Shown here: piece by piece, positions 5,106 to 41,543 of the stretch
How the letters are laid out: every line of letters begins with the position of its first letter
Numbering within the stretch: position 1 is the first letter of the stretch
Assembly: GCA_951812855.1 (NCBI GenBank)
Contig: OX638337.1
Location: 960,108-1,024,107 of the forward strand
From: an uncultured Lentisphaeria bacterium
GTDB taxonomy: Bacteria; Verrucomicrobiota; Lentisphaeria; JABSQK01; JAJFLO01
Length of the DNA stretch: 64,000 bases
Direction of reading: 5' to 3'
Translations under genes and position numbers: made by a program
The notes under the pieces: generated by a model
What the model was told of the DNA's origin: nothing
The model's input: the letters and a program-made list of their open reading frames with translations, nothing else
The model's database searches: none

Positions 5106-5134
5106 GCAGAATTCTAATCTGATTAATTGCACTT

Positions 5135-7543: not shown

Positions 7544-10500
7544 ATGCATGACGATTCCACAATAAACGATGGGATAATTCCCCTTACCAATCCTGATCAG
7601 GCAGAGCTTGATAAACATGCGATTATCGAAGCATCGGCGGGAACGGGGAAGACCTATACGATCGAACAGCTGGTTGTTCGACTGCTCATTGGAAACCCTG
7701 ATGTAAATCCTCCGGTTTTACCTATTCCTATTGACCGGATTCTGGTTGTCACATTTACCGAAAAAGCGACCGGCGAAATGAAAGACCGGATACGTAATAC
7801 TATCGAAGCAAAACTGAACAACGCAGCACGTTCTGATACCGAATGGTTCTATCTGCATGACGCACTGGAAAATTTTGATAATGCCCAGATATCAACGATA
7901 CATGGGTTCTGTCACCGAACATTGCGGGAACATGCCTTTGAAAATGGTCGCCAGTTTGAATATGATGTCGTTGATGATCGGGATATTTACCATACACTGT
8001 TACTCCGGCAAATGCGGGAAGATTGGCCAAAACACTATGGCCGCAATCTATGCACATACCTTCTATTGGCAGATTTTCCGCATCGAGTCCAAAATGAGAG
8101 TCAGTGGATAGACACAACGATTAAACTTGCACAAAACTTCAGACCCAATGCCGGAGATCAACTCTATCCTGAACCTGATGCAACCGTTTCACCAATGAAA
8201 ACTGTGTCGGAACTGAAACAATACCTGTCTGAATTAGTAATGGTGATTGGAGGATTTCCAATTAACTCTGTTACCGATCATCCATTTTATGGTGCGTATT
8301 CCAGATTGAACTTTAATGCCGGCAGCAAAAACCTCCGCCTTAAGAACGTTATTACACCATTATTAGAACTGTTAGACCATTTCAGGGAAAAGAAGAATGA
8401 CATTCTGGATTCCGGTACAGTCGCAGCAATGATCAGATTAATCCGGGATAATAAAAAAACATCAGCGTTTGCTGAGTCCGGTTTTGCCTGCCTTATGCCG
8501 AAAAAATGGAATAAGGACAAGAACAACCTGGATACAGAATGCCCGCATTTACAATCTATAATCAACCCTCTTGAACAGATCCGGGAATTGACAACATCCT
8601 TTGCCCCTCAATTCAGGAGTCAGGTTGTTAAACAACTGCAAACCGATGTCCGCCTGTATAAGGAACAGAAAGGTTTACTGACTTACAACGATATGATCTC
8701 CATGGTTGCAGCCGCGTTATCCGGAAACCATGGCACTGAAACCCCGCCTCCATTATTATCTGCGTTACGTGATCGCTACAAGATTGCATTAATCGATGAA
8801 TTTCAAGATACGGATATCTTACAATGGTCAATTCTGAAAACCGTTTTCGTGGATAAACATGATGACAGCCCACACCGTTTAATTGTTGTTGGAGATCCCA
8901 AACAGGCAATATATGGTTTTCGCGGTGCCGATTTGAATGCCTATTATTTAGCCCGAAATCAACTTGGTAAACTCGGAAAAACGAAAACCGGATGTTACTC
9001 ACTGGATACCAATTGGCGTTCAATTCCACAGTTAATAGATGCATTCAACGCTCTATTCAAACACGATAACTGGTTTCAACGTAATGACATCCGACATCAA
9101 CCGGCCAATACTCCGACACCCGGATCAGGACGGAATCGATTATATCGTGACAACACAGGTTCTTCAGTATTAATAACGCATAGCATTAACAGTGATAAAT
9201 CAGCGAAGGCGGCTCAGGCAGAGTGGTTTAAATTTATTGCAGCAGAAATTGATCGTTTACTGAATTCATCAACTGAAATGATGATGTTTGGTGATAAAAC
9301 CTCACCGCCTCGACCGCTTCGTGCAGATGATATTTGTATCCTTTGCCAAAATAAAACAGAAGCCGGACGAATAGAGAAAGAATTAAATAACACTCACATC
9401 CCCTATTCATTTTACAAAAAACCGGGGCTATATGAATCCGATGAAGCCTTGCAGCTGCTTTACTTATTAGAGGCAATTGCGTCGCCAAATGATACGGCTG
9501 CGTTTAAGAAACTGCTGATGACATGCTTTTTTGCAATTCCGGTATTAGATGTCAAAAATTATGAAAATCTGCCTTCGGATCATTGTATTAAACGGCTTTT
9601 CCTGAAGTGGGTCAGACATGCAGCAAATCGACAGTGGGCGATTATGTTTCATTCAATCAGAAACGAAACCCGCATTCTGCTAAACACAGGAAACGACCCC
9701 GATCATGAACGGCGATTAACAAATATTGAACAGATTATCCAAGAACTCCATAATCGTGCATTGACCGAAAATATGGATATTATTGACCTTGCCAATCTTC
9801 TTGGCAACCTTTATTATAATCATATCTCAATCTCTGAGGAAGACAATTTACATCGTCGAGACACAGAACATCCCGGGGTACAAATGACCACCATCCATAA
9901 GAGTAAAGGACTTGAGTTTCCTGTTGTTTTCATTGCCGGGGGAATGACAGCACCTCCGAATACAAATCAACCCTATTACAAGATTCATAATGGGGAACAT
10001 GTCATTTATGACCTGACATCCAAATCAAAATCACAATGGGAAAATGAACAGCATGAAGAACTGCAGCGGTTATACTATGTTGCATTAACCCGGGCAATAT
10101 ATAAGCTTTATATTCCTCATTATCGAAACGAAAAACAGCTGAATGCGTCAGGAGCAGTCGCCAAAATACTATATCCCGCCATTAATGCTGCTGCAGGCGA
10201 ACTTCCCGCCGCTCCTGTTATAACTGATCGAATTGATATATCAAACTCTGAGTGGAACGAGTCGAGGATGAAGGTAATACAACTCGATCCGGCAATAGAG
10301 TTACCGCGTAACGATTTCAATCTCAGAGACCGAAACAGGTCACAGAGTATCGATTCATATTCCGGGTTAAAAAACAAAATGCTGCCACATGCTCCAGCCA
10401 AATTCCAGAATATCTCAAATCAATTCGGATATGACCAGGCGGAAGAACCTGCAGCCGATGAAAGCAGTCAAACGACGCAAACCCGGACAATGAACATTGA

Positions 10501-11218
10501 AGCTGCCGATCCAATTCAAAAAACAGGTCTGCCGCCCGGTCGACTCACCGGGAATCTATTGCATAATGTATTCGAATCATTAGACTTTCAACTTGCCGGA
10601 TCCACGGCAGGTCCAAAGGAACTCTTACAAACCGGCACAGCTGAAGTCATTAAAAAATCGATGAATCACTATCAACTGCCGGCAGAACATGATGATCAAC
10701 TCAAAACAATCTATCACCATGAAATTTCGAAAATTATCTGGACAACATTAAATGTCGAACTTCCAGGCGGAATCAAACTTCGGGATATTTCAGAATGTGA
10801 CCGCAAACACGAACTGGAGTTTTTTTTTCCGTATCCTCAGTTAAGTAATACTGACATTCCCAATATCAATCGATGTGACGGCTTTGTAAAAGGTTATATC
10901 GATTTGATATTCCGCTGCCGGAATAAGTATTATATTCTTGATTGGAAATCGGATAGTCTCGATGATTATTCACCGGATCAACTGGAGCATCATATGTGCA
11001 GTAATTACTATGATCTGCAATATAAACTCTATACGATCGCAACAGATCGCTGGCTGCAGCAATATCATCAGACAAATCAATTAGCGGGCGTATTTTATCT
11101 ATTCCTCCGTGGCTTGAAAACAGGGACACATAGCGGGATTTTCCCGGTAATATTTAAAGATCAGGTTCCCCCGACTCAGGAATATGAAAACGAACTTGAT
11201 AAATTGATACAAACGTAA
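7544..11218 (+). CDS. recB: RecB-family helicase-nuclease (exodeoxyribonuclease V beta-like)
   Basis: 1224-aa ORF; N-terminal UvrD/Rep-type Walker A (IIEASAGTGKTYTIEQL), helicase motifs (…VVGDPKQAIYGFRGAD…), C-terminal PD-(D/E)xK nuclease motif (GYIDLIFRCRNKYYILDWKSD). Confidence 0.8.
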   Translation: MHDDSTINDGIIPLTNPDQAELDKHAIIEASAGTGKTYTIEQLVVRLLIGNPDVNPPVLPIPIDRILVVTFTEKATGEMKDRIRNTIEAKLNNAARSDTEWFYLHDALENFDNAQISTIHGFCHRTLREHAFENGRQFEYDVVDDRDIYHTLLLRQMREDWPKHYGRNLCTYLLLADFPHRVQNESQWIDTTIKLAQNFRPNAGDQLYPEPDATVSPMKTVSELKQYLSELVMVIGGFPINSVTDHPFYGAYSRLNFNAGSKNLRLKNVITPLLELLDHFREKKNDILDSGTVAAMIRLIRDNKKTSAFAESGFACLMPKKWNKDKNNLDTECPHLQSIINPLEQIRELTTSFAPQFRSQVVKQLQTDVRLYKEQKGLLTYNDMISMVAAALSGNHGTETPPPLLSALRDRYKIALIDEFQDTDILQWSILKTVFVDKHDDSPHRLIVVGDPKQAIYGFRGADLNAYYLARNQLGKLGKTKTGCYSLDTNWRSIPQLIDAFNALFKHDNWFQRNDIRHQPANTPTPGSGRNRLYRDNTGSSVLITHSINSDKSAKAAQAEWFKFIAAEIDRLLNSSTEMMMFGDKTSPPRPLRADDICILCQNKTEAGRIEKELNNTHIPYSFYKKPGLYESDEALQLLYLLEAIASPNDTAAFKKLLMTCFFAIPVLDVKNYENLPSDHCIKRLFLKWVRHAANRQWAIMFHSIRNETRILLNTGNDPDHERRLTNIEQIIQELHNRALTENMDIIDLANLLGNLYYNHISISEEDNLHRRDTEHPGVQMTTIHKSKGLEFPVVFIAGGMTAPPNTNQPYYKIHNGEHVIYDLTSKSKSQWENEQHEELQRLYYVALTRAIYKLYIPHYRNEKQLNASGAVAKILYPAINAAAGELPAAPVITDRIDISNSEWNESRMKVIQLDPAIELPRNDFNLRDRNRSQSIDSYSGLKNKMLPHAPAKFQNISNQFGYDQAEEPAADESSQTTQTRTMNIEAADPIQKTGLPPGRLTGNLLHNVFESLDFQLAGSTAGPKELLQTGTAEVIKKSMNHYQLPAEHDDQLKTIYHHEISKIIWTTLNVELPGGIKLRDISECDRKHELEFFFPYPQLSNTDIPNINRCDGFVKGYIDLIFRCRNKYYILDWKSDSLDDYSPDQLEHHMCSNYYDLQYKLYTIATDRWLQQYHQTNQLAGVFYLFLRGLKTGTHSGIFPVIFKDQVPPTQEYENELDKLIQT

Positions 11219-11258
11219 TTAAAATTAACTGACCCAACATAGTCTCAACGCGAATTAA

Positions 11259-13385
11259 ATGATGAGTTTACCACTAACGATCGAAACCCTGAAACATCAC
11301 AATGTTATATCTCCGGGGAACATTGATATTGAAACGCTTTATACCAATGCACTGGACCATTTAAATCTAACCGGTGCAGACTATCTGACGATTCGGGATT
11401 TGCTGCAATTCATCAATCAACCGGAAATAGACGTTCATGCACTTTTGCTCTGCATGTTTGCATCGCTTAATGATGGAAGTGTCTGTATTCATATTAACCC
11501 GTCAAATCTTAACAGACACTTATGTCGGTTTCTAAAGAATGAAACAGTCATTGACCGACTGGTTCAGGATATAATTTCCTGCCTGAAGAATAAAAAAACA
11601 GCCCCTGTCATTGGTCAGTCAGTTAAGGAATTTAAACCCTTAATTCAGGCAAATGACAGCCTGTTATACTTTCAAAAATACTACTCTGCAGAATATAGAT
11701 TAGGCCAGTTACTCTCATCAATTATAGATAGCGACAGCACAATTACCCCGATTACAGATGGTAATCTAAATGAGATACTGATTGATAGTTTTGAGACTCA
11801 ACCAATTGGATCAGGCCACGGGCAAATTCGTTATAATGATGACCAGATTTTGGCTCTGATTGCTGTACTTTTAAAACGATTTGTCATCATTTCCGGAGGT
11901 CCGGGAACAGGGAAAACGTCTCTGATTATCGCCATTGTCCGGATGTTTATCCGAACCGGTATATTCGCTGACCGTATCAAGCTTGCTGCACCAACCGGGC
12001 GTGCCGCCCAACGATTGACAGAATCTATTCATGCTTTAAATTTCAGTCAGGGCAGCAAAAATGAGATTGATGACAGTTTGAAAAGTATGGACGCTACGAC
12101 AATCCATCATCTTCTTGGTTATAAAAAATCACGTAATTCATTCACCTGCAATGACCATAACCTCCTGCCTGCAGATGTGGTTATTGTCGATGAAGTGTCC
12201 ATGGTTGACATCGTCTTAATGACAAAACTTTTACAGGCAATCCCAAAGGAGTGTCACATTATTTTTCTTGGTGATCGCAATCAATTACCCTCAGTTGAAG
12301 TCGGCAGTGTTCTGGCAAATCTTATCCCCGTATCGTTACCGGGATATTCTATTGAATTCCGGGAAACCGTAAAATCAATCAGACCCGAAATTAATCTGCC
12401 GGCACTATCGGCACAAGACAATAATCAATTGTGTGACAAGGTCGTATTTTTGTCGAAAAATTACCGTTCTGAACCAAATATAATACAGATTACCGATACA
12501 ATAAACTCACTTTCAAATGAAAACCCGGGCATAGACACAGCATCCAGGGCGGCCGAAATAATCCATGACCTTCCACAATTGAATATAAAGCAAATGACCC
12601 ATTCCTCACAATTCCCTAAAACTGGATGTTGGCAGTTTATACCCGGCACAACTTCCGATAAATTGATATGGATAGAAATCATACAAACCTGGGGAAAATC
12701 TCAATACCTGATGCGCAGAGACAACCATGGAAACACCTATAAAGACTGTATTCAAAAAGTTCAGGGAAGAGAGATTCAGTCTGAGGTTCACAGTGATGAT
12801 AAAAACGAAACATTTGATGCGATATTTAAATTTATCAGTCAGGCACGAATACTGACACTCATCCATGCCGGATTATTGGGTACCCAGGGTATTAATGAAA
12901 TTTTAATCAATCAGCTTCACCCCGAATTCGATACCCCGGGAAGCAATGCAATATTTCACGGATCACCTATCCTGATTACCCGCAACGATAAAATAAGTGG
13001 TCTGTTTAATGGCGATATAGGCGTTATACTAACTGATGCAGAGCGTGGATTTAACGGCGTGTTCCAACGGTCAGGAAACTACATTTCAATTCCTGTCAAT
13101 GAACTCCCGCCATACGAATCATCTTTCGCCATGACTGTTCATAAAAGTCAAGGATCTGAATATGATGACGTTCTTCTTGTACTCCCCGATAATCCCAATC
13201 ACCGATTATTGACGCGTGAAATCATTTACACCGGCCTCACCCGTGCAAAAAATCTGGCTGTTATATATGGTTCAAAAGAAACACTGCAAACCGCTATAAC
13301 AATACAGATACATCGGGAATCAGGATTGGATATTTGGAATTTTCATGAAATACAGGGGGAATCTTTACACAGACAAAATGTATAG
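11259..13385 (+). CDS. recD: RecD-family SF1 5'-3' helicase (exodeoxyribonuclease V alpha-like)
   Basis: 708-aa ORF; Walker A ISGGPGTGKTS, Walker B …VIVDEVSMVD…, C-terminal …TVHKSQGSEYDDVLLVLP…; 40 bp downstream of recB. Confidence 0.8.
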   Translation: MMSLPLTIETLKHHNVISPGNIDIETLYTNALDHLNLTGADYLTIRDLLQFINQPEIDVHALLLCMFASLNDGSVCIHINPSNLNRHLCRFLKNETVIDRLVQDIISCLKNKKTAPVIGQSVKEFKPLIQANDSLLYFQKYYSAEYRLGQLLSSIIDSDSTITPITDGNLNEILIDSFETQPIGSGHGQIRYNDDQILALIAVLLKRFVIISGGPGTGKTSLIIAIVRMFIRTGIFADRIKLAAPTGRAAQRLTESIHALNFSQGSKNEIDDSLKSMDATTIHHLLGYKKSRNSFTCNDHNLLPADVVIVDEVSMVDIVLMTKLLQAIPKECHIIFLGDRNQLPSVEVGSVLANLIPVSLPGYSIEFRETVKSIRPEINLPALSAQDNNQLCDKVVFLSKNYRSEPNIIQITDTINSLSNENPGIDTASRAAEIIHDLPQLNIKQMTHSSQFPKTGCWQFIPGTTSDKLIWIEIIQTWGKSQYLMRRDNHGNTYKDCIQKVQGREIQSEVHSDDKNETFDAIFKFISQARILTLIHAGLLGTQGINEILINQLHPEFDTPGSNAIFHGSPILITRNDKISGLFNGDIGVILTDAERGFNGVFQRSGNYISIPVNELPPYESSFAMTVHKSQGSEYDDVLLVLPDNPNHRLLTREIIYTGLTRAKNLAVIYGSKETLQTAITIQIHRESGLDIWNFHEIQGESLHRQNV

Positions 13386-13470
13386 GTACATCAGCACTGA
13401 TTTAAAATTTACGGCCATGGTAACTAATAATAATCAATCTTATATTGCGTTATAAATAAATAAAAATATT

Positions 13471-14046
13471 TTGAAAGAGATACCAATTCTTATGGAATCA
13501 GACGTATATAAAACACCGGGAACAGACTTACAGAATAACAATCAGCTCAATCCTGATTACTATGTGGTCTCACCGAAAAAGTTTGTTGTCCTCTTCACCG
13601 TTACTGTTGGCGTGTATTCGGTCTATTGGTTTTATAGAAACTGGCTGCACTACAAAAAGCGCAGCGGCGAAAAAATATGGCCGGTGATGCGTGCGATTTT
13701 TTCGATATTTTATGTCCATTCATTGTTTGAAATCATTGATACCAGACTTAAAAAAATGAATAGTTATTTTATATGGTCACACCGTTCCGCGGCAACGTCT
13801 TACGTTCTGTTCACGATTATTCAGAGCGTTTGCGATCATTTATCTTCAAAAAACATTGGATATCCCATTACAGATATAGTGAGTATCGCCATACTCCCTG
13901 TAATTGGTTATTCGCTCTATATTGGACAAAAAGCAATCAATGAAGCTTGCAAGGACCCGAATGGAGAATCAAATTCCAGGTACACCGCAGCCAATATTTT
14001 CTGGATCGTCATGGGCTGCATATTATGGCTGTTTGTAATTAATTGA
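13471..14046 (+). CDS. Hypothetical multi-pass membrane protein (DUF4234-like signature VGVYSVYWFYRNW)
   Basis: 191-aa ORF with 3-4 hydrophobic segments; no catalytic motif recognised; assignment to DUF4234 is from memory of the motif only. Confidence 0.45.
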   Translation: MKEIPILMESDVYKTPGTDLQNNNQLNPDYYVVSPKKFVVLFTVTVGVYSVYWFYRNWLHYKKRSGEKIWPVMRAIFSIFYVHSLFEIIDTRLKKMNSYFIWSHRSAATSYVLFTIIQSVCDHLSSKNIGYPITDIVSIAILPVIGYSLYIGQKAINEACKDPNGESNSRYTAANIFWIVMGCILWLFVIN

Positions 14047-14212
14047 TATTATTTTGGGCATTCCCGACCCGGAATAAATCCTGGAATTAAATAACGCAGA
14101 AATTTGGCAATGTATCATTCCCGATATCGTGAATAACTGTGATTTACTTTAGTTTTAGAATCAGCATATCCTTTCTACTGACACATCGAATAGAAACAGC
14201 CAATATGCAATT

Positions 14213-14701
14213 ATGAGTACAACACATAATTTTCATTTTTCAGATTCACGTGATATTGGCACTGTTGACAATGATTCAATCGACCTGGCTGTTACCTCAC
14301 CACCCGACCCTGTGATGGAAATGTGGGATGACCTTTTTGTTACTCTTAATCCAGATATTAGCGATGTACTTTCAGATTTAAACGGCCGGTTAGCCTTTAG
14401 TAAAATGCATCATGAATTAGATAAAGTCTGGAGAGAATTGGATCGGGTCGTGAAACCAGGCGGATTTGTATGCATAAATATCGGTGACGCAACCTGAACA
14501 ATCGGTAATAATTTCAGCCTGTATTCCAACCATTCCAGCATCCTTATGTCAATGACATCACTCTCATTTTCGTTACTGCCGTTAATATTATGGAGAAAAT
14601 CGACAAATTCACCAACGAAATTTATGGGCTCGGGGCTGCTCCCGCCAGGGGCCTGTATAACACTTGAACATGGATACATATTAATCTTCAGAAAAAATTA
14701 A
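14213..14701 (+). pseudogene. DNA (N4/N6-adenine/cytosine) methyltransferase remnant with in-frame TGA and missing C-terminal SAM-binding region
   Basis: Frame continues through TGA at 14495-14497: …SIDLAVTSPPDP…VVKPGGFVCINIGDAT(TGA)TIGNNFSLYSNHSS…FMGSGLLPPGACITLEHGYILIFRKN(TAA); resembles N-terminal half of PF01555-type MTases (DPPY-like motif degraded to SPPD); no downstream FxGSG motif found. Confidence 0.5.
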
Positions 14702-15364
14702 AATATAATAGCCGGCACCATTGTTTTCCTGTTATGACACGACAGGGGCAGGAGATACTCATTAAGTACATTGAAACGATTCAGATCAGTGATAACGGCA
14801 GAATTAATGTGGACTACACACCATTTGAATTAAATAATAAGTATGCGGAAACAGAAGAATCAGTTAAACACAAATCACAAATTTTAGAGAACCGGCAATT
14901 ATCATTATTCCAGATCTATTCTCGGAGAATCTCAATAATTATTAATAAGCAGGTGTCGTCATATGTTCTGGGTCGTCGTTGCAGTATTTGGATGTATCTT
15001 TTTTATCGTAATTAATGCGTTCGTGTTTAATCCGCCGGAATCATTGCTCAAGTCTATACTTGAATGGAAAGAAAAATCAGTAGATGATGATCCTGGAACT
15101 GAAGACAGTAAAGAATAAAGTAAACAATACGTGATCTAAGAATCAAAACTTAAAACGGTAACACAGATTGATATGCCTCATGAACTCATTTTCAATCAAT
15201 CACATAAAAACCGAAATCAATGGTCGATATTTTATGAAACGATCTCTTCGGTGGACTTAAAAATTGATAATCGTAACAGGACAGTGTAAAATTAAATCTG
15301 ATAACTATTGAAAATCCGCTTTTTCAGAACAGGCTCCCGTTAAATCCTAATAATATAAAAAATT

Positions 15365-16868: not shown

Positions 16869-16986
16869 TTGACCGAAATGGTATTCTATTTGAAATGTTT
16901 GGTTTAATACAGCTGAGAGAGAATTAGATCTAATATTAAAAAAATAAAACGTATTAATTTTTGACTCTCAAACCAGAGAGTTGTTT

Positions 16987-17006
16987 AAAATAGCACAAAA
17001 CACTGT
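16987..17006. repeat. Copy 1 of 20-bp direct repeat AAAATAGCACAAAACACTGT in wza upstream spacer
   Basis: Seen directly; second copy at 17501-17520 differs at 2 adjacent positions (CA vs TG). Confidence 0.5.
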
Positions 17007-17135: not shown

Positions 17136-17500
17136 AGAAAAAAGCGTGCATGTCGATTGCAGCGTCTGACAGTGAGGGATATCTGGTGGTACGCATAGTC
17201 AGAACACAGGTCGGAGAGGTTTCTGAGTAACTTCCATCACCGCTGAAGGCATGGTCTGAAGAACAATAGACTGTCCTGGCGTCTCTGGGCAATGCTTCTA
17301 TTAATGAATGGCTCAATACTGTCAACATTAATTTTATGTGTATGAATGTACTTGCTCCCATTTACAAGACTAAAATTAAATCATTGGTTAGGTCATGGTA
17401 TACAAACAATAATCAGCAATTATTAAAATATAGAAAACGGGTAATAAATTCTATAACCCAAGACTGCTGACGGTGGTTAAAAATGCAGGATATTATTTTA

Positions 17501-17520
17501 AAAATAGTGCAAAACACTGT
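17501..17520. repeat. Copy 2 of 20-bp direct repeat AAAATAGTGCAAAACACTGT, ~90 bp upstream of wza start
   Basis: Seen directly; 514 bp downstream of copy 1, same orientation. Confidence 0.5.
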
Positions 17521-21919: not shown

Positions 21920-23548
21920 TTAGCATAATGCCTTATCAACAATGTCCTGTGCTTCGTTTAACAATTGTTTTAAGTGATCATCACCAATAAAACTTTCTGC
22001 ATAAATCTTGTAAACATCCTCGGTACCGGAAGGTCGTGCCGCAAACCAGCCGTTTTCAGTGGCGACTTTAACTCCGCCGATCGGCACAGCATTGCCGGGA
22101 GCATTACTTAGTTTTTGGAGAATTTTTTCACCTGCTAATGTGTTTGCTGTTATTTGGTTCGGGGAAAGATTTTTTAGCCTGTTTTTCTGTTCAGAATTAG
22201 CTGCTGCGTCGATCCGCCGATAGACCGGATCACCAAATTTCTCTGTAAGTTCTTTATAATGTTCACCGGGGTCCTTTCCTGTTTTGGCCATAATTTCGGC
22301 TGCGAGTAAATCGAGAATAATTCCATCCTTGTCTGTTGTCCATGCGGTACCGTCAAATCGGAGGAACGATGCCCCGGCGCTTTCCTCCCCGCCAAATCCA
22401 TAGGTCCCTGTCCGGAGACCCTGGACAAACCATTTAAAGCCGACGGGTACCTCTAATAACCTCTGACCGAATGAATCGGCGACCCGGTCAATCATGCTGC
22501 TGCTGACCAGGGTCTTTCCGATTGCTGCATCAGGCTTCCATCCCGGACGATTTGTGAAAAGGTAATGAATGGCTGCTGCGAGATAGTGATTCGGATTCAT
22601 CAAACCGACACTCTTAGTCACGATTCCATGGCGATCGCTGTCAGGATCGTTGCCAAAGGCAATATCATAATTTTCTTTCATAGCAATCAGCCCGGCCATA
22701 GCGTAGGGAGAGGAACAGTCCATCCGAATTTTTCCGTCTTTGTCAACCGTCATAAATTTGAATGTTGGATCGATATCTTTGTTGACGATATCAATATTAA
22801 GACCATATCGGTCTGCGATAGGCTGCCAATACTGCAGTGATGCACCCCCCATGGGATCAACCCCTATATTTAATCCTGCGGATTTAATTGCATCCATGTC
22901 GATGACATTCTCGAGGTCGTTTACAAACGGTTTAATATAGTCGTGGGCATGGGTAGAATCCGCAGTTAAGGCCTGTTCTAAAGATAATTTACGGACATCA
23001 TGATTTGAATTATTCATCAACGAGTTTGCCCGATCTTCAATCCATCCGGTGATTGTGGTATTTGCCGGGCCGCCATCGGGTGGGTTGTATTTAAATCCAC
23101 CATCTTCAGGAGGATTATGAGATGGTGTAATAACGATACCATCCGCATCTGCTTTCTTCGCTGATTTATTATGTGTTAAAATCGCATGTGAAACAACTGG
23201 AGTTGGTGTATACCCATTATCCTTTTGTATATACACATCGACGGTGTTGGCAGCCAGCACCTCTATTGCTGTATTGAATGCCGGGGTTGAAAGTGCGTGT
23301 GTATCTTTTCCGATGTACAGCGGACCTTTAATTGCATTGGTATCGCGGTAGTCACAAATTGCCTGAGTGATCGCCTGAATATGACGTTCATTAAAACTGC
23401 CTGCATTCGACGATCCGCGATGACCCGAGGTACCAAAGGCAACAGGTTGAAGACGATCCACCTTTTCATAATAAGTATCTACTAAATGTGCGATGTCAGC
23501 GATCAATTCAGTGGGAACCGGTTTTCCGGCTAAAGGATGTAATGACAT
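21920..23548 (-). CDS. pgm: Phosphoglucomutase (alpha-D-glucose phosphate-specific)
   Basis: 542-aa ORF; phosphoserine-loop motif …[10 protein letters not shown]…, metal-binding …GVDPMGGAS…, sugar-binding …[10 protein letters not shown]…. Confidence 0.9.
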
Positions 23549-24121
23549 GGATTTTGTCTCCTGTAACGTTATTCAATGATGACTACAGTCAGGTATTGTA
23601 ATACTTGAAACAGATCTTCAGGTTCCGGGATGAGAAAATCAAACATGAATGTATACCGATTATTATTTAAATCCATTGTGTCTGTATCACAATGTTTTTA
23701 CGTACTTTCCGAGTAAAAAACCAGCATAAAATTCAGGTTAAAATGCTATAAAGTAAAATTAATGGTACCATATTTTATGAGGTGTAAAGGATACGGTGCG
23801 GGATATCCGAAATAAATCTGTATTGATAATAAGGCGTTACTGTCATGATACGGAGCTATCCCTCAAATGGCGATTTTACGTTTTTCATAATTGACAAGAA
23901 GTTGCGGTCTAAATTTCGTTTCATTTTCGAGATAATGCAGTTCCGTAATCACTCTTGTAGAACGGAATTCTTCTGGTTTACTTAAACATTCGAGAAAATG
24001 AACAGCACTGCCCCATTGTGCAACATGTTGAGGCTCTGCTGAAAGTGACACATTTTCATCCCATTTTATATCCAGCGAATAGCTGACACAGGTTGATTTC
24101 GAAATTGTTATAAGTTCTGCT

Positions 24122-24487
24122 AATACTGGTATATATAAACGAATCCCTGCCCTGGCCAACGCTGCCGGGTTCACCTTCAGCACAATGCCACGGCTTAAAT
24201 ACCTAAAAAAGAAATGCACAGTGAGGTCGCCCAGGCATTACCATAGACGATGACGTACCACTAATATGGCAGAAAACATCAATAAACAATTAAAGGAACG
24301 AACACGCATCGCATCACTTTTCCCAAACGAAGCATCACTGCTCAGATTGGCAAGTGCCATTTTGATCAAAATCAGCGACCGGCGGACGCTGGAAAACGTA
24401 CCTGAAAATGGATCATCAATGACCTGCGATTATCAAACTGCAGAAAAAAATTTGCATTACCGCCATTTTTTAATAATTGTGTACTAA
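24122..24487 (+). mobile_element. IS256 (Mutator)-family transposase 3' remnant with in-frame TGA
   Basis: Frame translates …SPRHYHRR(TGA)RTTNMAENINKQLKERTRIASLFPNEASLLRLASAILIKISD…, matching the conserved C-terminal block of IS256-family transposases (…TTNxIExxNxxLRxxxKxxxxFPNExSxxRLxxAxL…); N-terminal/catalytic part not found; 5' boundary approximate. Confidence 0.5.
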
Positions 24488-24603
24488 TTTTGCTGTTTAT
24501 AAGTGATTTACTCATGTTTGTGTGTAGTGTAAAAGCTTTCGTTTTATACACAATAAATATTTGATAATGAACAATGCGTGAGTTATATGAGGAGAACGAC
24601 TAA

Positions 24604-26079
<1,476 letters not shown>

Positions 26080-27922: not shown

Positions 27923-28014
27923 GGTTATTTGTTTTCTGGAGGTGAAATATTTTCGTTATTATTCTTAATACCCGCCTAATATGGTATATAAGAACGAATC
28001 TTTATTAATCGATT

Positions 28015-28218
28015 TTATTTATACTCGAGAATGGTTGCACCATCGGTAAATCCCCCGCCAAAACTGCAGAGACCGATATCATTGTAACCGTCCATATCTG
28101 CCATAATATCATTAAGGGCAAGTGGTATGGTATTGGATGAGGTATTTCCAGGATGCTCAATATTACAAAAAACTTTCTCATTATCAATATTTAATCCTGT
28201 TTGGGTTCCAATTGTCAT
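28015..28218 (-). pseudogene. C-terminal fragment of a FabH-like 3-oxoacyl-ACP synthase III / thiolase-fold condensing enzyme
   Basis: 67-codon frame …GLNIDNEKVFCNIEHPGNTSSNTIPLALNDIMADMDGYNDIGLCSFGGGFTDGATILEYK matches FabH C-terminus pattern (GNTSxxSIPLAL … FGGGxTWGA); in-frame TGA two codons upstream of first Met; no upstream body of gene found. Confidence 0.35.
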
Positions 28219-28697
28219 GGATTGTCACACAATTGTACACGGATTTATTAAATTAGTTTAAATATAAGGGAGTCAATATGAATACACCTCTCATCTTTGA
28301 ATGATCGCAAGAAGACTCGAATATGCTTTTTATGTTTATCAGCCAAGTTTTATTTTCCATGGTATTTGTTAGTGGGGTAAGCTTTGGTTTTCGTATCGGT
28401 TTGTTATTAAGCACATTGTATTGTCAGATTCATGGCAGCTGTTTGAATTACCGGTGTTCACAGGGCAGGTTACAGCCTTGACGTATCTGTTCACCTTAAT
28501 ATACAGGATGCACTTTCAGGAAATAGCCGGGGCAGTTTCTTTTAACTAAATGGCAGCCTTGTATTTTACCTCACTTTAATTATTTATGGTAAACTGACGG
28601 GCTGTAACACCGGGCTTAATGGCCTTGTATTCCTCTGAAAAATCAGGCGGGCGGCATATTTTTTGACATCATTTTAAAATTTATAAAGATTAACGCC

Positions 28698-30908: not shown

Positions 30909-31151
30909 TGAATTAAAAAAAGCACATAAGGAAGAGAAATGAAGTTTGCTGCTAATGCTGCAGCGAAGCGGGCAGGTGTCAGGAGTTGTTATTGCTGTTT
31001 TTACCATACATATGAAGATTCGATTGATAAGATGGATTTTAAAAAATCAGCACGGGTGGTCGCCGGTTTAGAACATGTTATTAAGAATTTAGTCGGCATA
31101 AGGAAATGAGAAATAACGGATAATAATAAGAAAGTAAATATAGAAAATTGT

Positions 31152-32715
31152 TTAGCTTCGATTAAGCACAATTGCAGTTCGGGCTGGAAGATATACGGTG
31201 AAGAAATGCTTTTGATTTTTACCGTTATTTTTACATTCTCGGGTATGGTAACGCTGATTTTCATCCAGTCTGCCCTGGCCGTTAAAGGTTTTTGCATCAC
31301 TGTCTAATAGAAGTTTGTAAGTCCCGGGATCAGTATAAACCGGTAAATGATTAACGGGGATTAAAGTTAAAGATAAAAATAAGTTGAGCTCGTTGGAAAC
31401 AAATTAATTTATCCAGGATGTGGTTGCAGATTAAATCTCCCCTGTCATCAGGATCTAGAAGATTAAACGTGTCGGCTATTTTTATCATTTCCTTGTCAAA
31501 TTCTGCTAAATGATAATAAATCAGATTGGGATCATCACGCAGGCTCCACTGGCGTCTTGCATATTGGAACGACCAATCATTTCCTTCTCTCGGGAAATCA
31601 ATCCACTCAGGATGACCAAACTCATTTCCCATAAAATTCAAATACCCTTCACCACCGATGGCCAACGTAATCAGACGGATCATTTTATGTAAGGCGACAC
31701 CTCTTTCAACAGAGATATTGTTATGGTCAAGATGCATATTGTGGTACATATCTTCGGCAATGGTCAGGGCATCGGGTTTGAGTTTGTGAATCAGTTTATT
31801 TGCCAATGTCAGGCAGGTCAGGGCATCGTTATCCACCTGATCATTGAAATAATCATCATAAGTTGTAAATGTTTTATCAAGACCATGGTCGGTGTACAGC
31901 ATGCTGGTGACGCCATCAAAACGAAATCCATCTAAATGAAATTCATCCCGCCAATATCGACAGTTTGATAGCAGAAAATGTATCACTTCACCTTTTTGAC
32001 AGTCAAAACATCGTGAGTCCCAGGCGTCATAATAGCCGCGGCTGCCGGTATGAAAATAAAGATGATCAGTACCGTCAAAAAAGCTTAATTATTCTACTTC
32101 ATTGCGAACGACATGGGAATGAACCAGATCCATGATGACAGCAACGCCTTGACCGTGTGCGGCATCGATAAGTGCTTTTAATTCATCCGGCGTCCCGAAT
32201 CTGGAAGATGCTGTAGAAAAATTAGACACATGATAACCAAATGATCCGTAGTAAGGATGTTCCTGTATTGCCATCAATTGGATGGTATTGTAGCCGCAAT
32301 CAACGATTCTCGGGAGAATATTATTTTTGAATTCGGTGTATGATCCGACACGGGTATTCTCCAATGCCATACCAATATGTGTCTCGTAAATGATTGGTGG
32401 TTTCGTTGATCGTTTAAATCAGGTATCTGCCGGATCAATTTTAATCCTTATAGTTTCGCCTTCCGACCATATTGGGTTTTCTGAATTTTCTGGCAGGGAA
32501 AACATTTTCACCTGGAAATAGCCAACCTCCAACATTGGCAATGAAATTTTGTAATAATTTTTACGAACTGGTTTCATCGGGAAATCAAACCAGTCGTCAT
32601 TCTTTTTGGCTTCTCCGAATTCCACCTGATTAATAATATCCTGCCGGTTGTTCCTGCCGTGGCTCAGTGTACTTCTGATCCGGGCGGTCTCTTGACAGGG
32701 TTGATTTAATGTCAA
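31152..32715 (-). pseudogene. glgB: Eukaryote-type (GH13) 1,4-alpha-glucan branching enzyme gene, decayed: four in-frame stops, one frameshift, internal deletion, truncated N-terminus
   Basis: Three track ORFs (32419..32715, 32089..32370, 31351..31986) lie in the same frame, separated by in-frame TGA (32419-21) and TAA (32089-91); conserved GBE motifs present (…IYETHIGMA…, …[23 protein letters not shown]…, …LDGFRFDGVTSMLY…, …HKMIRLIT…GGEGYLNFMGNEFGHPEW…) but ~95 aa including the catalytic ESHDQ region absent between TIAED and MYHNM; C-terminal domain (…VYTDPGTYKLLLDSDAKTFNGQGRLDE…FFTVYLPARTAIVL) continues in another frame after TAA 31351-53/TGA 31330-32. Confidence 0.65.
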
Positions 32716-32818
32716 TAAAAACAGAATAATATCACCACTACAGGATATTACTTCTGATCCGGGCTTTGGTGTTGTGTCAGCATTTTCTTTAGTATCGTTA
32801 ATACGAAATGTTATAAAA

Positions 32819-35767: not shown

Positions 35768-36106
35768 ATGGAGAACACAAGCTCAAGTACGGAGAAGTTA
35801 TCTGAAGCCTTAAAAATGCTTGATGATGCAGCGAAAAGCAAAAAAGCTGAGATTCAGGATTTACTGTCTTCCAAATATAAGAATATAAAAGAAACATTTA
35901 CTGGTTTCGATTCTAAAGACTCAGTTGAAGCGTTAAAGAAAAATGCAACTGAAAAGGCATCAAGAGTAGCTGAAATCAGTGAAGATAGAGTTAAAGAGAT
36001 TGCAACTGAAATCGATCAAAATGTCCATAATAATCCCTGGCCGTATATTGGTGGAGCAGCCATATGTTCATTACTCCTCGGCTATATTATGGGGCGCAAA
36101 GATTAA
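35768..36106 (+). CDS. DUF883 (YqjD/ElaB-like) C-tail-anchored membrane protein
   Basis: 112-aa ORF; coiled/charged N-terminal region and single C-terminal TM helix (…WPYIGGAAICSLLLGYIMGRKD), the ElaB/YqjD architecture. Confidence 0.65.
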   Translation: MENTSSSTEKLSEALKMLDDAAKSKKAEIQDLLSSKYKNIKETFTGFDSKDSVEALKKNATEKASRVAEISEDRVKEIATEIDQNVHNNPWPYIGGAAICSLLLGYIMGRKD

Positions 36107-36160
36107 TTTTGCATTACATTCAATCCGGAAGAGTATCAAGACAGATAGTCATAACAAACA

Positions 36161-36550
36161 ATGAATAACATATTCAGTTCGATATTTAGTCGAGTTATAA
36201 GTCCAGTTTTCAAAGCAAGTCGGCAGACGTCTCTTAAATTATTAAAAATTGAAGTGGCCCGATGTCGTATTAATATTGTAAAAAAAGTGCGTCTGGCGTT
36301 TCTTGGCGGTGCAGGAGTCCTTTTCTTATACAGTTTTTTTACAAGTGGTTTTCTAATGTTGGCGGCGACTTGCTTTATCATATTAATGGTAAAATTTGGA
36401 GTGAAAACTGCCGTAATTTTTCTATTTATATCAGGTGCTTTATGTTGTCTAATCCCAATCACCATACTGTCGATAGTCAGCTCAGAAAAAGCCTGGCTAA
36501 AACATACCGATTGTGATTCTATCCTGGACGATGTTTTTTCAGGAAAATAA
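36161..36550 (+). CDS. Small inner-membrane protein (possibly YqjE-like partner of the preceding gene)
   Basis: 129-aa ORF with two hydrophobic segments; 55 bp downstream of DUF883 gene; family assignment tentative. Confidence 0.4.
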   Translation: MNNIFSSIFSRVISPVFKASRQTSLKLLKIEVARCRINIVKKVRLAFLGGAGVLFLYSFFTSGFLMLAATCFIILMVKFGVKTAVIFLFISGALCCLIPITILSIVSSEKAWLKHTDCDSILDDVFSGK

Positions 36551-36690
36551 TATCCTGTCTTTCACGCAGTGAAAAACCAGATCCTGATGTCTTGCCCGTA
36601 TCCCTGACTCCACTAAAACATGGATATATGAAAAGCTGATATGTGGATACAGACCAGTGTTCTGTCCTCAGTATTTTATTAAAAGGATGA

Positions 36691-37449
36691 TTGAATCTGA
36701 ATCGTATGAAAAATTGGTACAAAGACGCCTTTACTGAAGATTATATTCATATTTATCAACACCGCAACCAAACAGAAGCGACAATTCTAATCGACCGGTT
36801 ATTGAAATTTTTGAATTTACCAGGCGATTCATTGTGTTTAGATTTATGCTGTGGATTTGGTCGTCATTTATCATATTTATTAGATCAGGGGATAAATACA
36901 TATGGATTAGATTTATCACAGCCACTACTGGAAAATGCGGTTGAAATAAGGCAATTATCCGGTCGTGTCATTCTTGGAGATATGAGACACATTCCCTTTA
37001 GTAAGTCATTTGATTTTGTTTTCTCCTTTTTCTCCAGTTTTGGTTATTTTCACAGGGATTCAGAAAATATACAAGTTTTACAGGAGATTAATCGAGTGTT
37101 AAAACCAAAGGGAAGATTCTTAATCGATTATCTTAATGCTGAGCATGTTAAAGATAATTTGAGAGAACATGACCTTCGTTGCTATGATAATTTTACTGTA
37201 AAGCAGAAGCGCTGGATAAATTCAGATTTAAATACGGTAGAAAAAGAGTTAATCATTGAAGATGTCAAGGGTGAACGATCTTATTTTGAGAGTGTTAAAC
37301 TCTATGATCTGGTAGATTTCAGGCAACTTTGTTCAGCCTCGAATTTGAAAATCACCCATGAATTTGGAGATGCCATTGGAAAACCGTTTGACATCGGATC
37401 AAGTCGTTTGATCATGGTGGGGGGAAAAATTGACAGTCACCTTTCATAA
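36691..37449 (+). CDS. Class I SAM-dependent methyltransferase (translationally coupled to bshC)
   Basis: 252-aa ORF; SAM-binding motif …LDLCCGFGRHLSYLL…GLDLS…; stop overlaps bshC start by 20 nt. Confidence 0.75.
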   Translation: MNLNRMKNWYKDAFTEDYIHIYQHRNQTEATILIDRLLKFLNLPGDSLCLDLCCGFGRHLSYLLDQGINTYGLDLSQPLLENAVEIRQLSGRVILGDMRHIPFSKSFDFVFSFFSSFGYFHRDSENIQVLQEINRVLKPKGRFLIDYLNAEHVKDNLREHDLRCYDNFTVKQKRWINSDLNTVEKELIIEDVKGERSYFESVKLYDLVDFRQLCSASNLKITHEFGDAIGKPFDIGSSRLIMVGGKIDSHLS

Positions 37450-38995
37450 TTTCAATTTGGTAGATGATAACCTTTATAATGCCAAAATAACGTCCGCTTT
37501 TCTGGAAACAGATCCTTATTCATCAGATTCATTGTCCAGGAATCATCAATACGCGTCATCACGGTCTGACATCGACCGCGAATTTTTGTCGGAGACTTTT
37601 TCTGAATATAATAATGTCATCGGTAATGACTCCACGGCACTTTATAATTGCAGTCGAATAAGAAATGCAGGTTCAATGGCAGTGGTTACAGGCCAGCAGG
37701 CCGGGATGCTGACCGGTCCATTATACACGATATATAAGATTATTACGGCTGTTAATTTTGCAAAGCATTGTGAACATAAGTTTAAGACACCTGTCATCCC
37801 GGTTTTTTGGAACGCAACCGAAGATCATGATTTAAGTGAAGTCGAATCATTTCATTATCCTGGCAAGAAGTGGTCTGCCACTTTTTCACAAAACGGAGTT
37901 GCAGCACAATTTTTAAACGTAAATCCGGCATGTTCGAATCTTGTTTACAATTTCCTGGATTCAATCTCAGAAATAAATCATAAAGATGAAATTACATCTA
38001 TACTGACAAATGAGTTTGAAAAATACGGAGAATTTTCATCGTCAGTGACAGCCCGGTTATTTAAGGGGACGGGTCTGGTCATTATTGAACCAAAATTATT
38101 GCGTAAAAAGTCAACTCCATTTTTTCAAAAGTGCATCAGCCATTGTCATGATATCAGAAATGGATTGGAGCAGGCCGGTGTTCTCTTACAGCAAAATAAA
38201 ATTAAGCCTGCATTTCAGGTGTCCGGGGATTCAACAGGACTTTTTTATATAACAGATGACGGGATTCGATATCAAATAAAAAATAGGAAAAATGACTTTT
38301 TTATTAATAACAAATGGGTTTCGGAATCTTCAGCGTTACAACTTATTGCCGAGTCTTCTTCAAATTTTTCTACCGGTGCATACCTGAGACCCGTTTTGCA
38401 GTCAAAAATTATTCCTGCTCTGGCATATATAGCAGGTCCAGCGGAATATAGGTATCATTTACAACTGAAAAATATATTTCACATGTTTGATGTTAAAATG
38501 CCTGTAATTCTACCCAGAAATCATGCAACCATTTTGACAAAAAAAGAATTGAAAGTTGCGAATAAACTGGGTTTGAAAATTCATGATTATTTTGAAGGTC
38601 CTCAAAAATTTTATCATCAGCACAAGTTATATAAAAAAGGAAGAGACAGTTTTAAGAATGCTGAACAGGCCTTGATAGACATCGCTGAGAATTTGGCTCA
38701 GGACATACCGGATTTAGTCAATGAGAATGTATTAAATCAGTTTAAATCAAACTTGGGTATTCAATTAGACAAACTTGAAAAACGCGTTGCGAAAGAAGTC
38801 TTGAGACGCGAGGGAATTGACAATGCCAGAATTGATCGGTTTTATAATTGTATTTTCCCGAAAAAATCTATGCAGGAACGATGGATTAATATCTTTTATT
38901 TTATTGAACAAAATGGTTTATCCATTATCAGTGATTTGTTGAAAATTATCGATCCTTTAGAACGGCGACATTATGTTGTTTATACAGACCATTAG
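37430..38995 (+). CDS. bshC: Bacillithiol biosynthesis cysteine-adding enzyme BshC
   Basis: 521-aa ORF; conserved BshC block …AVVTGQQAGMLTGPLYTIYKIITAVNFAK…PVIPVFWNATEDHDL… and …AYIAGPAEYRY…; followed by bshB and bshA. Confidence 0.8.
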   Translation: MTVTFHNFNLVDDNLYNAKITSAFLETDPYSSDSLSRNHQYASSRSDIDREFLSETFSEYNNVIGNDSTALYNCSRIRNAGSMAVVTGQQAGMLTGPLYTIYKIITAVNFAKHCEHKFKTPVIPVFWNATEDHDLSEVESFHYPGKKWSATFSQNGVAAQFLNVNPACSNLVYNFLDSISEINHKDEITSILTNEFEKYGEFSSSVTARLFKGTGLVIIEPKLLRKKSTPFFQKCISHCHDIRNGLEQAGVLLQQNKIKPAFQVSGDSTGLFYITDDGIRYQIKNRKNDFFINNKWVSESSALQLIAESSSNFSTGAYLRPVLQSKIIPALAYIAGPAEYRYHLQLKNIFHMFDVKMPVILPRNHATILTKKELKVANKLGLKIHDYFEGPQKFYHQHKLYKKGRDSFKNAEQALIDIAENLAQDIPDLVNENVLNQFKSNLGIQLDKLEKRVAKEVLRREGIDNARIDRFYNCIFPKKSMQERWINIFYFIEQNGLSIISDLLKIIDPLERRHYVVYTDH

Positions 38996-39080
38996 GTCCA
39001 TATCAGCAAATCATAGATTTAACGTTGTGAAGTCTGACTGAAATGAAGAATGTAATACAACCAGAAAGAGTTGATACATT

Positions 39081-39791
39081 ATGGAATTGGATTATTTATT
39101 CTTGGCGGCCCACCCTGATGACGCAGAGCTATATTGTGGGGGATCAATTATTAAATTCAGGGAGAATGGTTATAGAGTGGGTATCCTGGATTTTACCAGA
39201 GGTGAAGCGGCAACTTCGGGTACAGTGGAAGACCGTGATCGCGAAACATTAACATCAAATGCAGTCCTCCAGCCAGATGTCAGGCACAACCTTGGACTTG
39301 TTGACAGTGGGTTGAGGGATGACGGGAATACGAGAATTCTGGTTGTTAATTATATTCGCAAGTATAGAGTTAAAGTATTGATTGCACCTCATGGACCATG
39401 CAGACATCCTGACCATACTGCTGTATCGACGCTGGCGAAAAATGTTTTTTTCTTTTCAGGTGCGGGCAAGTTCCCGTCTGATCATGAACGCTGGCAACCG
39501 CTGCAGCTTATTTACCATATGGAATTCCAGGATGTAAGACCGTCGTTTGTCGTTGATATTTCAGAACAGTTTGAACGAAAGATAAAGACAATTGAAGCAT
39601 ATAGTACCCAGTTCTATACGGATAGTAATCAAAATGAAAAGACACTGATCGGTTCCCATCGTTTTCGAGAGTTGATGATATCTCGGTTTAAGTATTATGG
39701 AAATCTTATAAATTGTGATTATGGAGAACCCTATATTCTTGACGAAACTCTAAGAATAGATGATCCTTTAAAGAACAAATTGGAAGGATAG
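39081..39791 (+). CDS. bshB: N-acetylglucosaminyl-malate deacetylase BshB (LmbE/PIG-L family)
   Basis: 236-aa ORF; LmbE-type metal-binding motif …LFLAAHPDDAELYCGGSI… and …HPDHTAV…. Confidence 0.8.
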   Translation: MELDYLFLAAHPDDAELYCGGSIIKFRENGYRVGILDFTRGEAATSGTVEDRDRETLTSNAVLQPDVRHNLGLVDSGLRDDGNTRILVVNYIRKYRVKVLIAPHGPCRHPDHTAVSTLAKNVFFFSGAGKFPSDHERWQPLQLIYHMEFQDVRPSFVVDISEQFERKIKTIEAYSTQFYTDSNQNEKTLIGSHRFRELMISRFKYYGNLINCDYGEPYILDETLRIDDPLKNKLEG

Positions 39792-39800
39792 GGTGAACGC

Positions 39801-40916
39801 ATGAATATCGGTATTGTTTGTTATCCATCAATTGGCGGGTCGGGCCTGATTGCAACTGAACTTGGAGTTAACCTCGCGAAACTGGACCATCAAATACATT
39901 TTATTTCATACTCAGTACCGTTCAAACTGTCAGTTTTCGACCGGAATGTCAACTTTCACTCTGTTGATCCCATTAACTATCCCTTATTTAATCAAACGTT
40001 ATACACATTTTCACTGACCGCAAAAATTATTGATGTCGTCAGAGAATATAAACTCGATCTTGTCCATGCACATTATTCGATACCCCATTCGCTATGTGCA
40101 CATTTAGCCAGGGAAGTCAGCGGGTGTGATTTTAAAATTATTACAACATTGCATGGTACAGACGTAACAATTGTCGGCCAAAATAAACCCTTATTTTCTT
40201 TGAATAAATATGGGATAGAGCAAAGTGATATGGTGACAACTGTATCACAATTCCAGAAAGAACATACGAATCGGTATATTGGTATTGCCAATGAAATAGA
40301 GGTGATTTATAATTTTGTTGATGCGGATATCTTCAGACCTGTTCCAAAAGGAAAATGCAGGGAATCACTGGCCTCGCCCGATGAAAAAATAATCATGCAC
40401 ATTTCAAATTTTCGGTCGCCGAAAGATCCCGAAGGAGTCATTAATATATTTCATGAAGTTTTGAAAAAAATCGAAGCGAAACTTGTCTTGATTGGTGACG
40501 GTCCGGGAATCGGAGAAATTAAAACATTATGTAAAGAGTTTAAAATCTGTGATAATGTTTGTTTCCTGGGAAAAATCGACAATGTCGAAAATCTGATACC
40601 TATGGCTGATTGTATATTACAACCCAGTTTAAGAGAATCATTCGGAATGGGTTTATTAGAGGCAATGTCCTGTGAAGTTCCTACGGTCAGCAGTAATGTC
40701 GATGGAATTCCTGAAGTAGTCGTTGATGGAGAAACTGGACTCATGGCTAATCCGGGAGATTATAAGACATTATCTGAGCATGTTATTAAAATTTGTTCGT
40801 CGGTGGATTGGGCAAAAAAGATGGGGAAAAACGGACGTCGGGTTGCTATTGAAAGATTCAACAAAGACAAAATCATCAGTGAATACCTAAAGTGTTATGA
40901 AAATGTGTTGAGCTGA
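39801..40916 (+). CDS. bshA: N-acetyl-alpha-D-glucosaminyl L-malate synthase BshA (GT4 glycosyltransferase)
   Basis: 371-aa ORF; BshA-type N-terminus MNIGIVCYPSIGGSGLIATELGVNLAKLDHQIHFISYSVPFKL and GT4 C-terminal motif …ESFGMGLLEAMSCEVPTVSSNVDGIPEVV…. Confidence 0.85.
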   Translation: MNIGIVCYPSIGGSGLIATELGVNLAKLDHQIHFISYSVPFKLSVFDRNVNFHSVDPINYPLFNQTLYTFSLTAKIIDVVREYKLDLVHAHYSIPHSLCAHLAREVSGCDFKIITTLHGTDVTIVGQNKPLFSLNKYGIEQSDMVTTVSQFQKEHTNRYIGIANEIEVIYNFVDADIFRPVPKGKCRESLASPDEKIIMHISNFRSPKDPEGVINIFHEVLKKIEAKLVLIGDGPGIGEIKTLCKEFKICDNVCFLGKIDNVENLIPMADCILQPSLRESFGMGLLEAMSCEVPTVSSNVDGIPEVVVDGETGLMANPGDYKTLSEHVIKICSSVDWAKKMGKNGRRVAIERFNKDKIISEYLKCYENVLS

Positions 40917-41025
40917 ATATTATTTTTGATAAATTACTTGCGATTTGAATCACACAGTTCATGAATTTACTTAAACCATAATCACGAAATCGGTAACCTG
41001 AAATCAGGTTGATCCACTCGATTTT

Positions 41026-41343: not shown

Positions 41344-41543
41344 TTATTTTTCGTCTATCAGTTCATATCTCAATCTAAATTGACAAAAAAAATTGGCTGT
41401 TGCTAATTTGAATTTAAGTATTAAAATTGGGTTATAATCAGGAGACAAATCAAAATGAGAGTTCCTGATGTCATAGTGAAACGATATAATCGGCTAAATT
41501 TTTTGCATTTTTCTGAAAAACACACAATCGATTAGGGAATATA

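Follow-up and report, generated by a model that had tools for sequence, protein, structure and literature searches.

What occupies the DNA between pgm and ilvC, and how did it come to be there? In the 64-kb stretch of an uncultured Lentisphaeria genome analyzed here (the window; 38% G+C), these two intact genes are transcribed away from each other across a spacer of 1055 bp (23549–24603). A preliminary description, made from the sequence alone, had put the spacer at about 1 kb, correctly, and had claimed that it holds the relic of an IS256/Mutator transposase, which would be the only mobile-element trace in the window and may have shaped an unusually long spacer. The sequence of the relic is real, since the locus is found in all strain-variant contigs of the source metagenome assembly (ENA ERZ18545485): two of these contigs match the window at 100% identity and two others at 99.7–99.9%. 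By exact protein matches, the locus also lies on a circular-type contig of that assembly (ptg000035c; 1,941,460 bp). The layout of the locus is given in Table 1.

Table 1. Features of the pgm–ilvC spacer and its flanks (positions are those of the window)
Feature	Position	Strand	Description
pgm (phosphoglucomutase)	21920–23548	-	Intact left flank; 542-aa ORF with all four PGM_PMM Pfam domains
Spacer DNA, ~600 bp	23549–24147		Presumably the pgm promoter plus decayed sequence of unexplained origin
Orphan ORF	23863–24219	-	118 aa (106 aa in the public assembly); 5' end antisense to the IS relic
IS256-family relic	24148–24462	+	312 bp out of the 1055-bp spacer
Block A	24148/24151–24234	+	Transposase residues about 248–275; reads PGQRCRVHLQHNATA, stop, IPKKEMHSEVAQ; different frame from block B
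Internal-deletion junction	24235–24246	+	~150–160 bp gone, transposase residues about 276–324
Block B	24230–24379	+	Transposase residues about 325–374; reads PRHYHRR, stop, RTTNMAENINKQLKERTRIASLFPNEASLLRLASAILIKISD
Frameshifted C-terminal tail of the transposase	24380–24422	+	Reads ...GGRWKTYLKMDHQ; original TGA stop at 24420–24422
Right terminal inverted repeat of the IS	24435–24462	+	CAAACTGCAGAAAAAAATTTGCATTACCG region
Native ilvC 5' region (promoter and leader)	24463–24603	+	Intact; begins directly at the IS end
ilvC (ketol-acid reductoisomerase, class II)	24604–26079	+	Intact right flank; 491-aa ORF with KARI_N and KARI_C

The segment at 24148–24462 is a decayed fragment of an IS406-like insertion sequence (IS) of the IS256/Mutator family, as had been proposed. 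A reconstructed 100-aa peptide matches the Pfam family PF00872 (Transposase_mut) with E=3.6e-12 and 46.3 bits (gathering score 21), and the NCBIfam model NF033543 ("IS256 family transposase") with E=1.7e-13 and 50 bits. The latter score does not reach the model's cut-off of 150, which applies to full-length proteins; a fragment of only 100 aa would not be expected to reach it. A protein search of 5.8 billion sequences returned 90 matches, all of them PF00872, and the best of these, P0001, aligns with block B by tblastn with E=6e-20 and 76% identity over 50 aa. These E-values rule out a chance similarity to IS256-family transposases. The nearest annotated elements are IS256-family/IS406 transposases, which are 55–58% identical to P0001. 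An ilvY-type regulator, which stands next to ilvC in E. coli (the ilvY–ilvC arrangement), was also considered as the source of a relic divergent from ilvC and was rejected, there being no LysR-type or other Pfam signal of one in any frame.

The relic is confined to this segment and does not take up the whole of the 23549–24603 interval. The remaining DNA on the pgm side (23549–24147) has no Pfam match in six frames and no Rfam family, and it resembles neither other parts of the window nor any of the fetched loci. It also gave no IS256-family transposase similarity in tblastn searches with full-length relatives, and these ~600 bp are not attributable to the IS.

How much of the transposase is left? 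The surviving parts were mapped with three full-length relatives: IS406 of Burkholderia multivorans, an IS256-family element of Burkholderia sp. (L007), and a 390-aa transposase encoded on a metagenome contig (L093). Two pieces remain, residues about 248–275 and 325–388 of a protein of ~390 aa. The first (block A) aligns by tblastn with P0001 (E=1e-7, 64% identity) and with residues 248–275 of the L093 transposase (71% identity), and by blastn with the DNA of L093 (74%) and of L006 (71%), the 924-bp contig of P0001 (GCA_024449935.1). It keeps a CxxH motif, with the Cys codon at 24163–24165 and the His codon at 24172–24174, and the QRCRVH in which this motif lies (24157–24174) corresponds in the alignment to QRCQFH (IS406) and QRCQTH (P0001); an in-frame TAA follows at 24196–24198. 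Between the aligned blocks, nothing corresponds to positions 372–534 of L006, and the same gap appears in the protein alignment. Block B, which reads in frame 2, covers positions 323–373 of the 379 in the PF00872 profile, and besides its match to P0001 it is identical by tblastn at 74% (L093), 78% (P0003) and 90% (P0016) of the aligned residues. As previously described, it carries the RTTN-x-E-x-N and FPNE-S-LRL motifs and an in-frame TGA at a hydrophobic position; this TGA (24251–24253) replaces a Leu of the relatives (...IRLRTTN...). In the tail, it is frame 3 whose translation matches the C-termini of P0001, P0003 and P0016 (...GKRYLKMDDQ, then the stop), and the DNA alignment with a second relic from the same genome (L005) shows single-base gaps in this region.

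The Glu codon of RTTNMAENIN (24272–24274) aligns with the invariant E340 of IS406, the position at which the DDE glutamate of the IS256 family sits (PMC7780238), and, as judged from this alignment, the residue is the third catalytic residue (Glu) of the DDE triad. In the same family, the CxxH motif comes after the second aspartate (PMC7780238; PMC3942029). What had been called a C-terminal block thus belongs to the catalytic region. On the other hand, residues 1–247, including both catalytic Asp (in FLDARY and DDH of IS406), are absent from all six frames of the spacer in very permissive tblastn searches and Pfam searches at E<=10, and no N-terminal transposase remnant was found in 23549–24150 by tblastn with IS406, the Burkholderia protein and L093 or by six-frame Pfam at E<=10. 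The earlier statement that the DDE region could not be found thus stands for the two Asp and for everything N-terminal of about residue 248, but not for the catalytic Glu and the CxxH motif, which are present. A triad of which only the E survives fits a truncated relic of a family member and not an intact member. Intact members of the IS256 family have a single transposase ORF of ~390–420 aa in an element of ~1.3–1.5 kb. In the relic, the reading frame is broken by two stops, at least one frameshift and the ~150-bp internal deletion. The single strain SNP that falls inside it replaces the F of the conserved LFPNE motif by L; purifying selection on the relic is not visible, and the one SNP fits neutral drift without proving it. 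The relic cannot encode a transposase, and its anatomy predicts that it is inactive in the copy-out/paste-in transposition of the family, which runs through a circular intermediate.

Elements of the IS256 family are bounded by two terminal inverted repeats of about 25–40 bp. Neither had been found in the preliminary description; the left one is indeed absent from the window, but the right one is recognizable. DNA similarity ends at ...TTTGCATTACCG (24462) in three independent comparisons (with L005, L006 and L093), and the last ~28 bp align with both inverted repeats of the intact IS406 (L008), the Burkholderia element (L007) and L093, with the consensus AATTTACAGAAAAxAxGTTGCAC. The terminal repeats of the family carry a subterminal TGTAAA/TTTACA (PMC7780238), which in the relic has decayed to ACTGCA (3/6 matches). 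A window-wide search with the reverse-complemented right end, allowing <=3 mismatches, found only the right end itself and no left inverted repeat. Nor does the 9-mer to the right of the end, CCATTTTTT, have a second copy in the spacer that could represent the 8–9-bp target-site duplication of the family; it occurs four times window-wide, which is the chance level. This test has little power, since the left junction no longer exists. With only one end left, the relic cannot be mobilized in trans. A simple in-situ insertion that has lost its left end and target duplication looks the same as the arrival of an already truncated fragment by recombination.

Which element did the relic come from? 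Its closest relatives are the fragment P0016 from the same genome (locus L005), P0001 on L006, and the element on L093, the closest of full length, which has an intact 390-aa transposase and both repeats, ~1.6 kb apart. At the DNA level, the identity is 89% for L005 and 74% for L006. All three end at the same right terminus as the relic and carry its signature MAENINKQ...FPNEASLLRLASAIL. (The L093 element has a ~300-bp non-coding tail that is absent from IS406. On its contig (101–1204 and 1087–2735), the IS is apparently inserted into or at the end of another transposase-like ORF, whose family is a guess.)

Among the closest named elements is IS406 of Burkholderia multivorans/cepacia, a member of the IS256 family with a length of 1367 bp and a 388-aa transposase that is 52% identical to the relic over block B and 48% over block A. 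IS406 and the relic have the same order of motifs (QRCxxH, RTTNxxExxN, FPNxxSxLRL) and a similar terminal-repeat architecture (...TTTACAGAAAAGAGGTTGCACAATCC against ...ACTGCAGAAAAAAATTTGCATTACCG). The documented insertion geometry of IS406 is also like that of the relic: it lies in a divergent intergenic region, with the IS oriented in the same direction as the downstream gene (PMC8231446). Unlike IS406, the relic measures only 312 bp, is broken by stops, a frameshift and deletions, and lacks the left end and the Asp residues; its host belongs to the PVC group and not to Burkholderia. Since the identity is only about 50%, the relic belongs to a different, unnamed lineage from IS406. The features of the IS256 family include an RNase H-like DDE domain, an alpha-helical insertion with C/DxxH, the subterminal TGTAAA and 8-bp target duplications, and members can be as distant as the structurally characterized ISCth4 and IS256, which are only 26% identical (PMC7780238). 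Of the features that ISCth4 and IS256 itself (from Staphylococcus and Enterococcus) define for the family, the relic still has the CxxH and the E, together with a repeat in degenerate form. In sequence it is probably distant from these two; even the IS406-like elements, the nearest to it among those with names, share only about 50% identity with it. In short, the relic is what remains of an IS406-like element of the IS256 family that has no name of its own, and it is ordinary genomic debris, in all likelihood non-functional.

The relic is not the only one of its kind in the genome. Between ffh and proC of the same 1.94-Mb genome lies a second relic (L005 10033–10230), 89% identical over 200 bp. 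It is more truncated than the copy in the window and consists of only the last 52 codons (protein fragment P0016) and the right repeat. This second relic points at the downstream proC, ~330 bp away; the window copy points at ilvC, 141 bp away. No intact transposase of the same lineage was returned from the 1.94-Mb contig by the first protein search, only P0016, which is 63 aa long. This suggests that the IS is extinct in the source genome, while an intact copy elsewhere in that genome is possible. A decayed IS256-family fragment on the minus strand, with pieces from the N-terminal and middle parts of the transposase, is also present ~5 kb downstream of ilvC in the related metagenome-assembled genome (MAG) OFTM198 (L011 11993–12585), and the IS256 family therefore has a history across the clade.

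Within the window, on the other hand, the relic stands alone as far as it was searched, consistent with the earlier claim. The rest of the 64 kb has no other significant tblastn match to P0001; six-frame Pfam searches of 12 further gaps of 343–1318 bp revealed no other transposase; and no mobile-element domains were found by Pfam in the 20 ORFs between 42995 and 59901 or in the called genes of the 14–36 kb region. The ORFs at 182–14046 and 35768–42961 were judged by reading their translations, which resemble those of housekeeping genes, and those at 60298–62515 were covered by the tblastn search alone.

An alternative view of the spacer is that the orphan ORF on the minus strand (Table 1) is a real gene, so that the spacer would in fact be a pair of ordinary intergenic regions and the IS similarity would have no bearing on the ORF. 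No ORF in the spacer is longer, and the public assembly lists it as a gene. It belongs, however, to no Pfam or NCBIfam family, and an exhaustive HMMER search of 1.84 billion representative proteins found only the ORF itself and two weak, repeat-inflated hits; the FN3-like hit is to a short motif, with a score inflated by 9 repeats. Over its first ~23 codons the ORF is antisense to the transposase relic, and the two strain SNPs that fall within the ORF are both non-synonymous. The ORF is probably spurious, and of all the readings weighed here, a genuine gene in this position is the one to which we give the least credence.

Does the relic do anything for ilvC? The DNA between the IS end and the ilvC start (24463–24603) is 78% identical at the nucleotide level to the corresponding region upstream of ilvC in the MAG OFTM167 (L009 3067–3203), compared with 55–56% at the third codon positions of ilvC and aspS between the same two genomes. 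This difference identifies the region as the conserved native promoter and leader of ilvC, which is intact. It matches no Rfam family and gives no signal of RNA structure (z=+0.66). A promoter scan of the spacer gave no plus-strand site, and it is uninformative, since it gave fewer sites than shuffled sequences did.

The one residual role that seems plausible is regulatory: the right end may have been retained because it supplies a promoter or read-out transcription that drives or modulates ilvC. There is a precedent in IS406, whose insertion in a divergent intergenic region, oriented with the downstream gene, raised the expression of that gene 3.9-fold and lowered that of the other gene 9.4-fold (PMC8231446), and the right repeats of the IS256 family carry a -35-like TTTACA (PMC7780238). 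Moreover, both relics in this genome consist of a right end only, each facing a biosynthetic gene (ilvC and proC). In the relic, however, it is precisely this TTTACA that has decayed at three of its six positions, and the scan gave no plus-strand promoter site. Two out of two relics in the same orientation is within chance, and the one strain SNP alters a conserved motif, as neutral drift might, although a single SNP is no proof. Further, ilvC should not need a promoter from the IS, since its native 5' region is intact and conserved with a relative that has no IS. Such an exaptation is thus very improbable, and it is slightly more improbable still that dead IS256-family right ends are kept selectively in this genome as regulatory or promoter modules for biosynthetic genes. 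If that were true, the gene-activating behavior of IS406 and IS256 would have become fixed as host regulatory DNA in a shrinking genome. Most likely, the fragment does nothing now, as judged from its lesions.

How, then, did the relic get to its present state? The nearest public genomes by their ilvC are the Verrucomicrobia MAG OFTM167 (90% aa identity), OFTM300 and OFTM198 (77–78%) and a Lentisphaerales MAG (75%), which makes the organism a member of the PVC group, and its genome is small. The closest of these, OFTM167 (L009), has no IS upstream of ilvC. The two relics in the source genome differ from each other by ~11%, far below the near-saturated neutral divergence from OFTM167; together with the IS-free ilvC upstream region of OFTM167, this leads us to infer that the IS invaded after the two lineages had split.

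The family of the element, the extent, lesions and right end of the relic, the second relic and the IS-free closest relative are directly observed, and from these a likely course of events can be pieced together. An IS406-like element of the IS256 family, about 1.35–1.6 kb long and encoding a transposase of ~390 aa, would have inserted ~140 bp upstream of ilvC and in the same orientation, with its right end directly abutting the conserved promoter and leader. The left 60–70% would then have been deleted, taking with it the left inverted repeat and codons 1–247 with both catalytic Asp. A further deletion of ~150 bp would have removed codons about 276–324, and the remainder would have gained the TAA, the TGA and the frameshift. 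The order of these decay events is inferred. As a whole, the account of an IS406-like element that inserted upstream of ilvC, decayed in place and is now inert is one in which we have high confidence.

The account can be extended. In OFTM167, ilvC–aspS is preceded by moxR–DUF58 on the same strand, and not by a divergent pgm as in the window, so the relic may mark a synteny breakpoint at which IS-linked recombination or an adjacent deletion removed the left part of the IS along with the former upstream genes, thereby joining pgm to ilvC. This would add to the main explanation rather than replace it. The nucleotide homology to L009 starts within about 0–10 bp of the right end of the IS, and the side of the IS that was lost is exactly the side facing pgm. 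A search with the DUF58 protein of OFTM167 turned up no close homologue from the 1.94-Mb genome. Two more distant relatives, however, have moxR–DUF58 followed by DUF503–grpE–dnaJ and not by ilvC, so that OFTM167 may be the genome that was rearranged. Furthermore, neutral sites are near saturation (55% identity), and unselected DNA to the left of the IS would therefore be unalignable even if no rearrangement had taken place. Nor is there a close pgm orthologue with which to compare the left side, the best non-self match being 71%. An IS-associated deletion or rearrangement at the spacer is consequently a reasonable reading, with the direction of change going either way, but as a scar that joined pgm to ilvC in this genome it is tentative and on balance unlikely. 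Insertion and decay in place, with or without such an event, remains our main explanation.

The spacer as a whole is in keeping with its surroundings. The relic accounts for 312 of the 1055 bp, which lends weak support to the suggestion that an old insertion shaped an unusually long spacer, but ~600 bp are left unexplained and spacers of 520–1318 bp are common in the window. Nine further gaps in the window measure 522–1318 bp, and several contain pseudogene debris. Six-frame Pfam searches revealed fragments of an N6/N4 DNA methylase in the gap at 14047–15364 (E=5e-8), a FabH-like protein (ACP_syn_III_C) at 27923–28697 (E=2e-9), and the catalytic and C-terminal parts of an alpha-amylase/branching enzyme at 30909–31350 and 31987–32818 (E=4e-8 and 1e-6). 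Since such spacers of 500–1300 bp with pseudogene debris are common in the window, that between pgm and ilvC is not unusually long. The coding density, counting ORFs of >=100 aa, is only ~80%. The decay is apparently still under way: in the strain-variant contig L001, ~491 bp between two imperfect 23-nt direct repeats (16984–17006 and 17498–17520) are missing, and this deletional loss of intergenic DNA is thus polymorphic among strains.

Two other genes in the window deserve mention. A 572-aa ORF at 57697–59415 on the minus strand combines an RpiB/LacAB ribose-5-phosphate isomerase domain (residues 14–153) with a full serine hydroxymethyltransferase (residues 164–540), an apparent rpiB–glyA fusion. 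At 55166–55912 on the plus strand, after a gap of 785 bp, a 248-aa protein matches the Pfam family D123 (E=3.6e-22), a CDC123-like ATP-grasp family best known from eukaryotes. The latter may have a bearing on a host-associated lifestyle.

What does the relic mean for the organism? In the first place, it is a routine item of annotation, a pseudogenized IS fragment that was missed by gene callers, with the antisense orphan ORF called in its place in the public assembly. It is also a modest marker: some time after this lineage parted from its nearest sequenced relative, an IS256-family element was active in it, and that element has since become extinct or nearly so. This pattern is expected for a host-restricted bacterium passing from a phase of IS expansion to one of IS loss and genome reduction. 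Because the relic sits at a difference in gene order with the closest relative, a census of such relics over the whole genome could help to reconstruct its rearrangements and deletions. Taken by itself, the relic is of only slight value: in a PVC-group genome undergoing reduction, it marks former IS activity and a difference in gene order.
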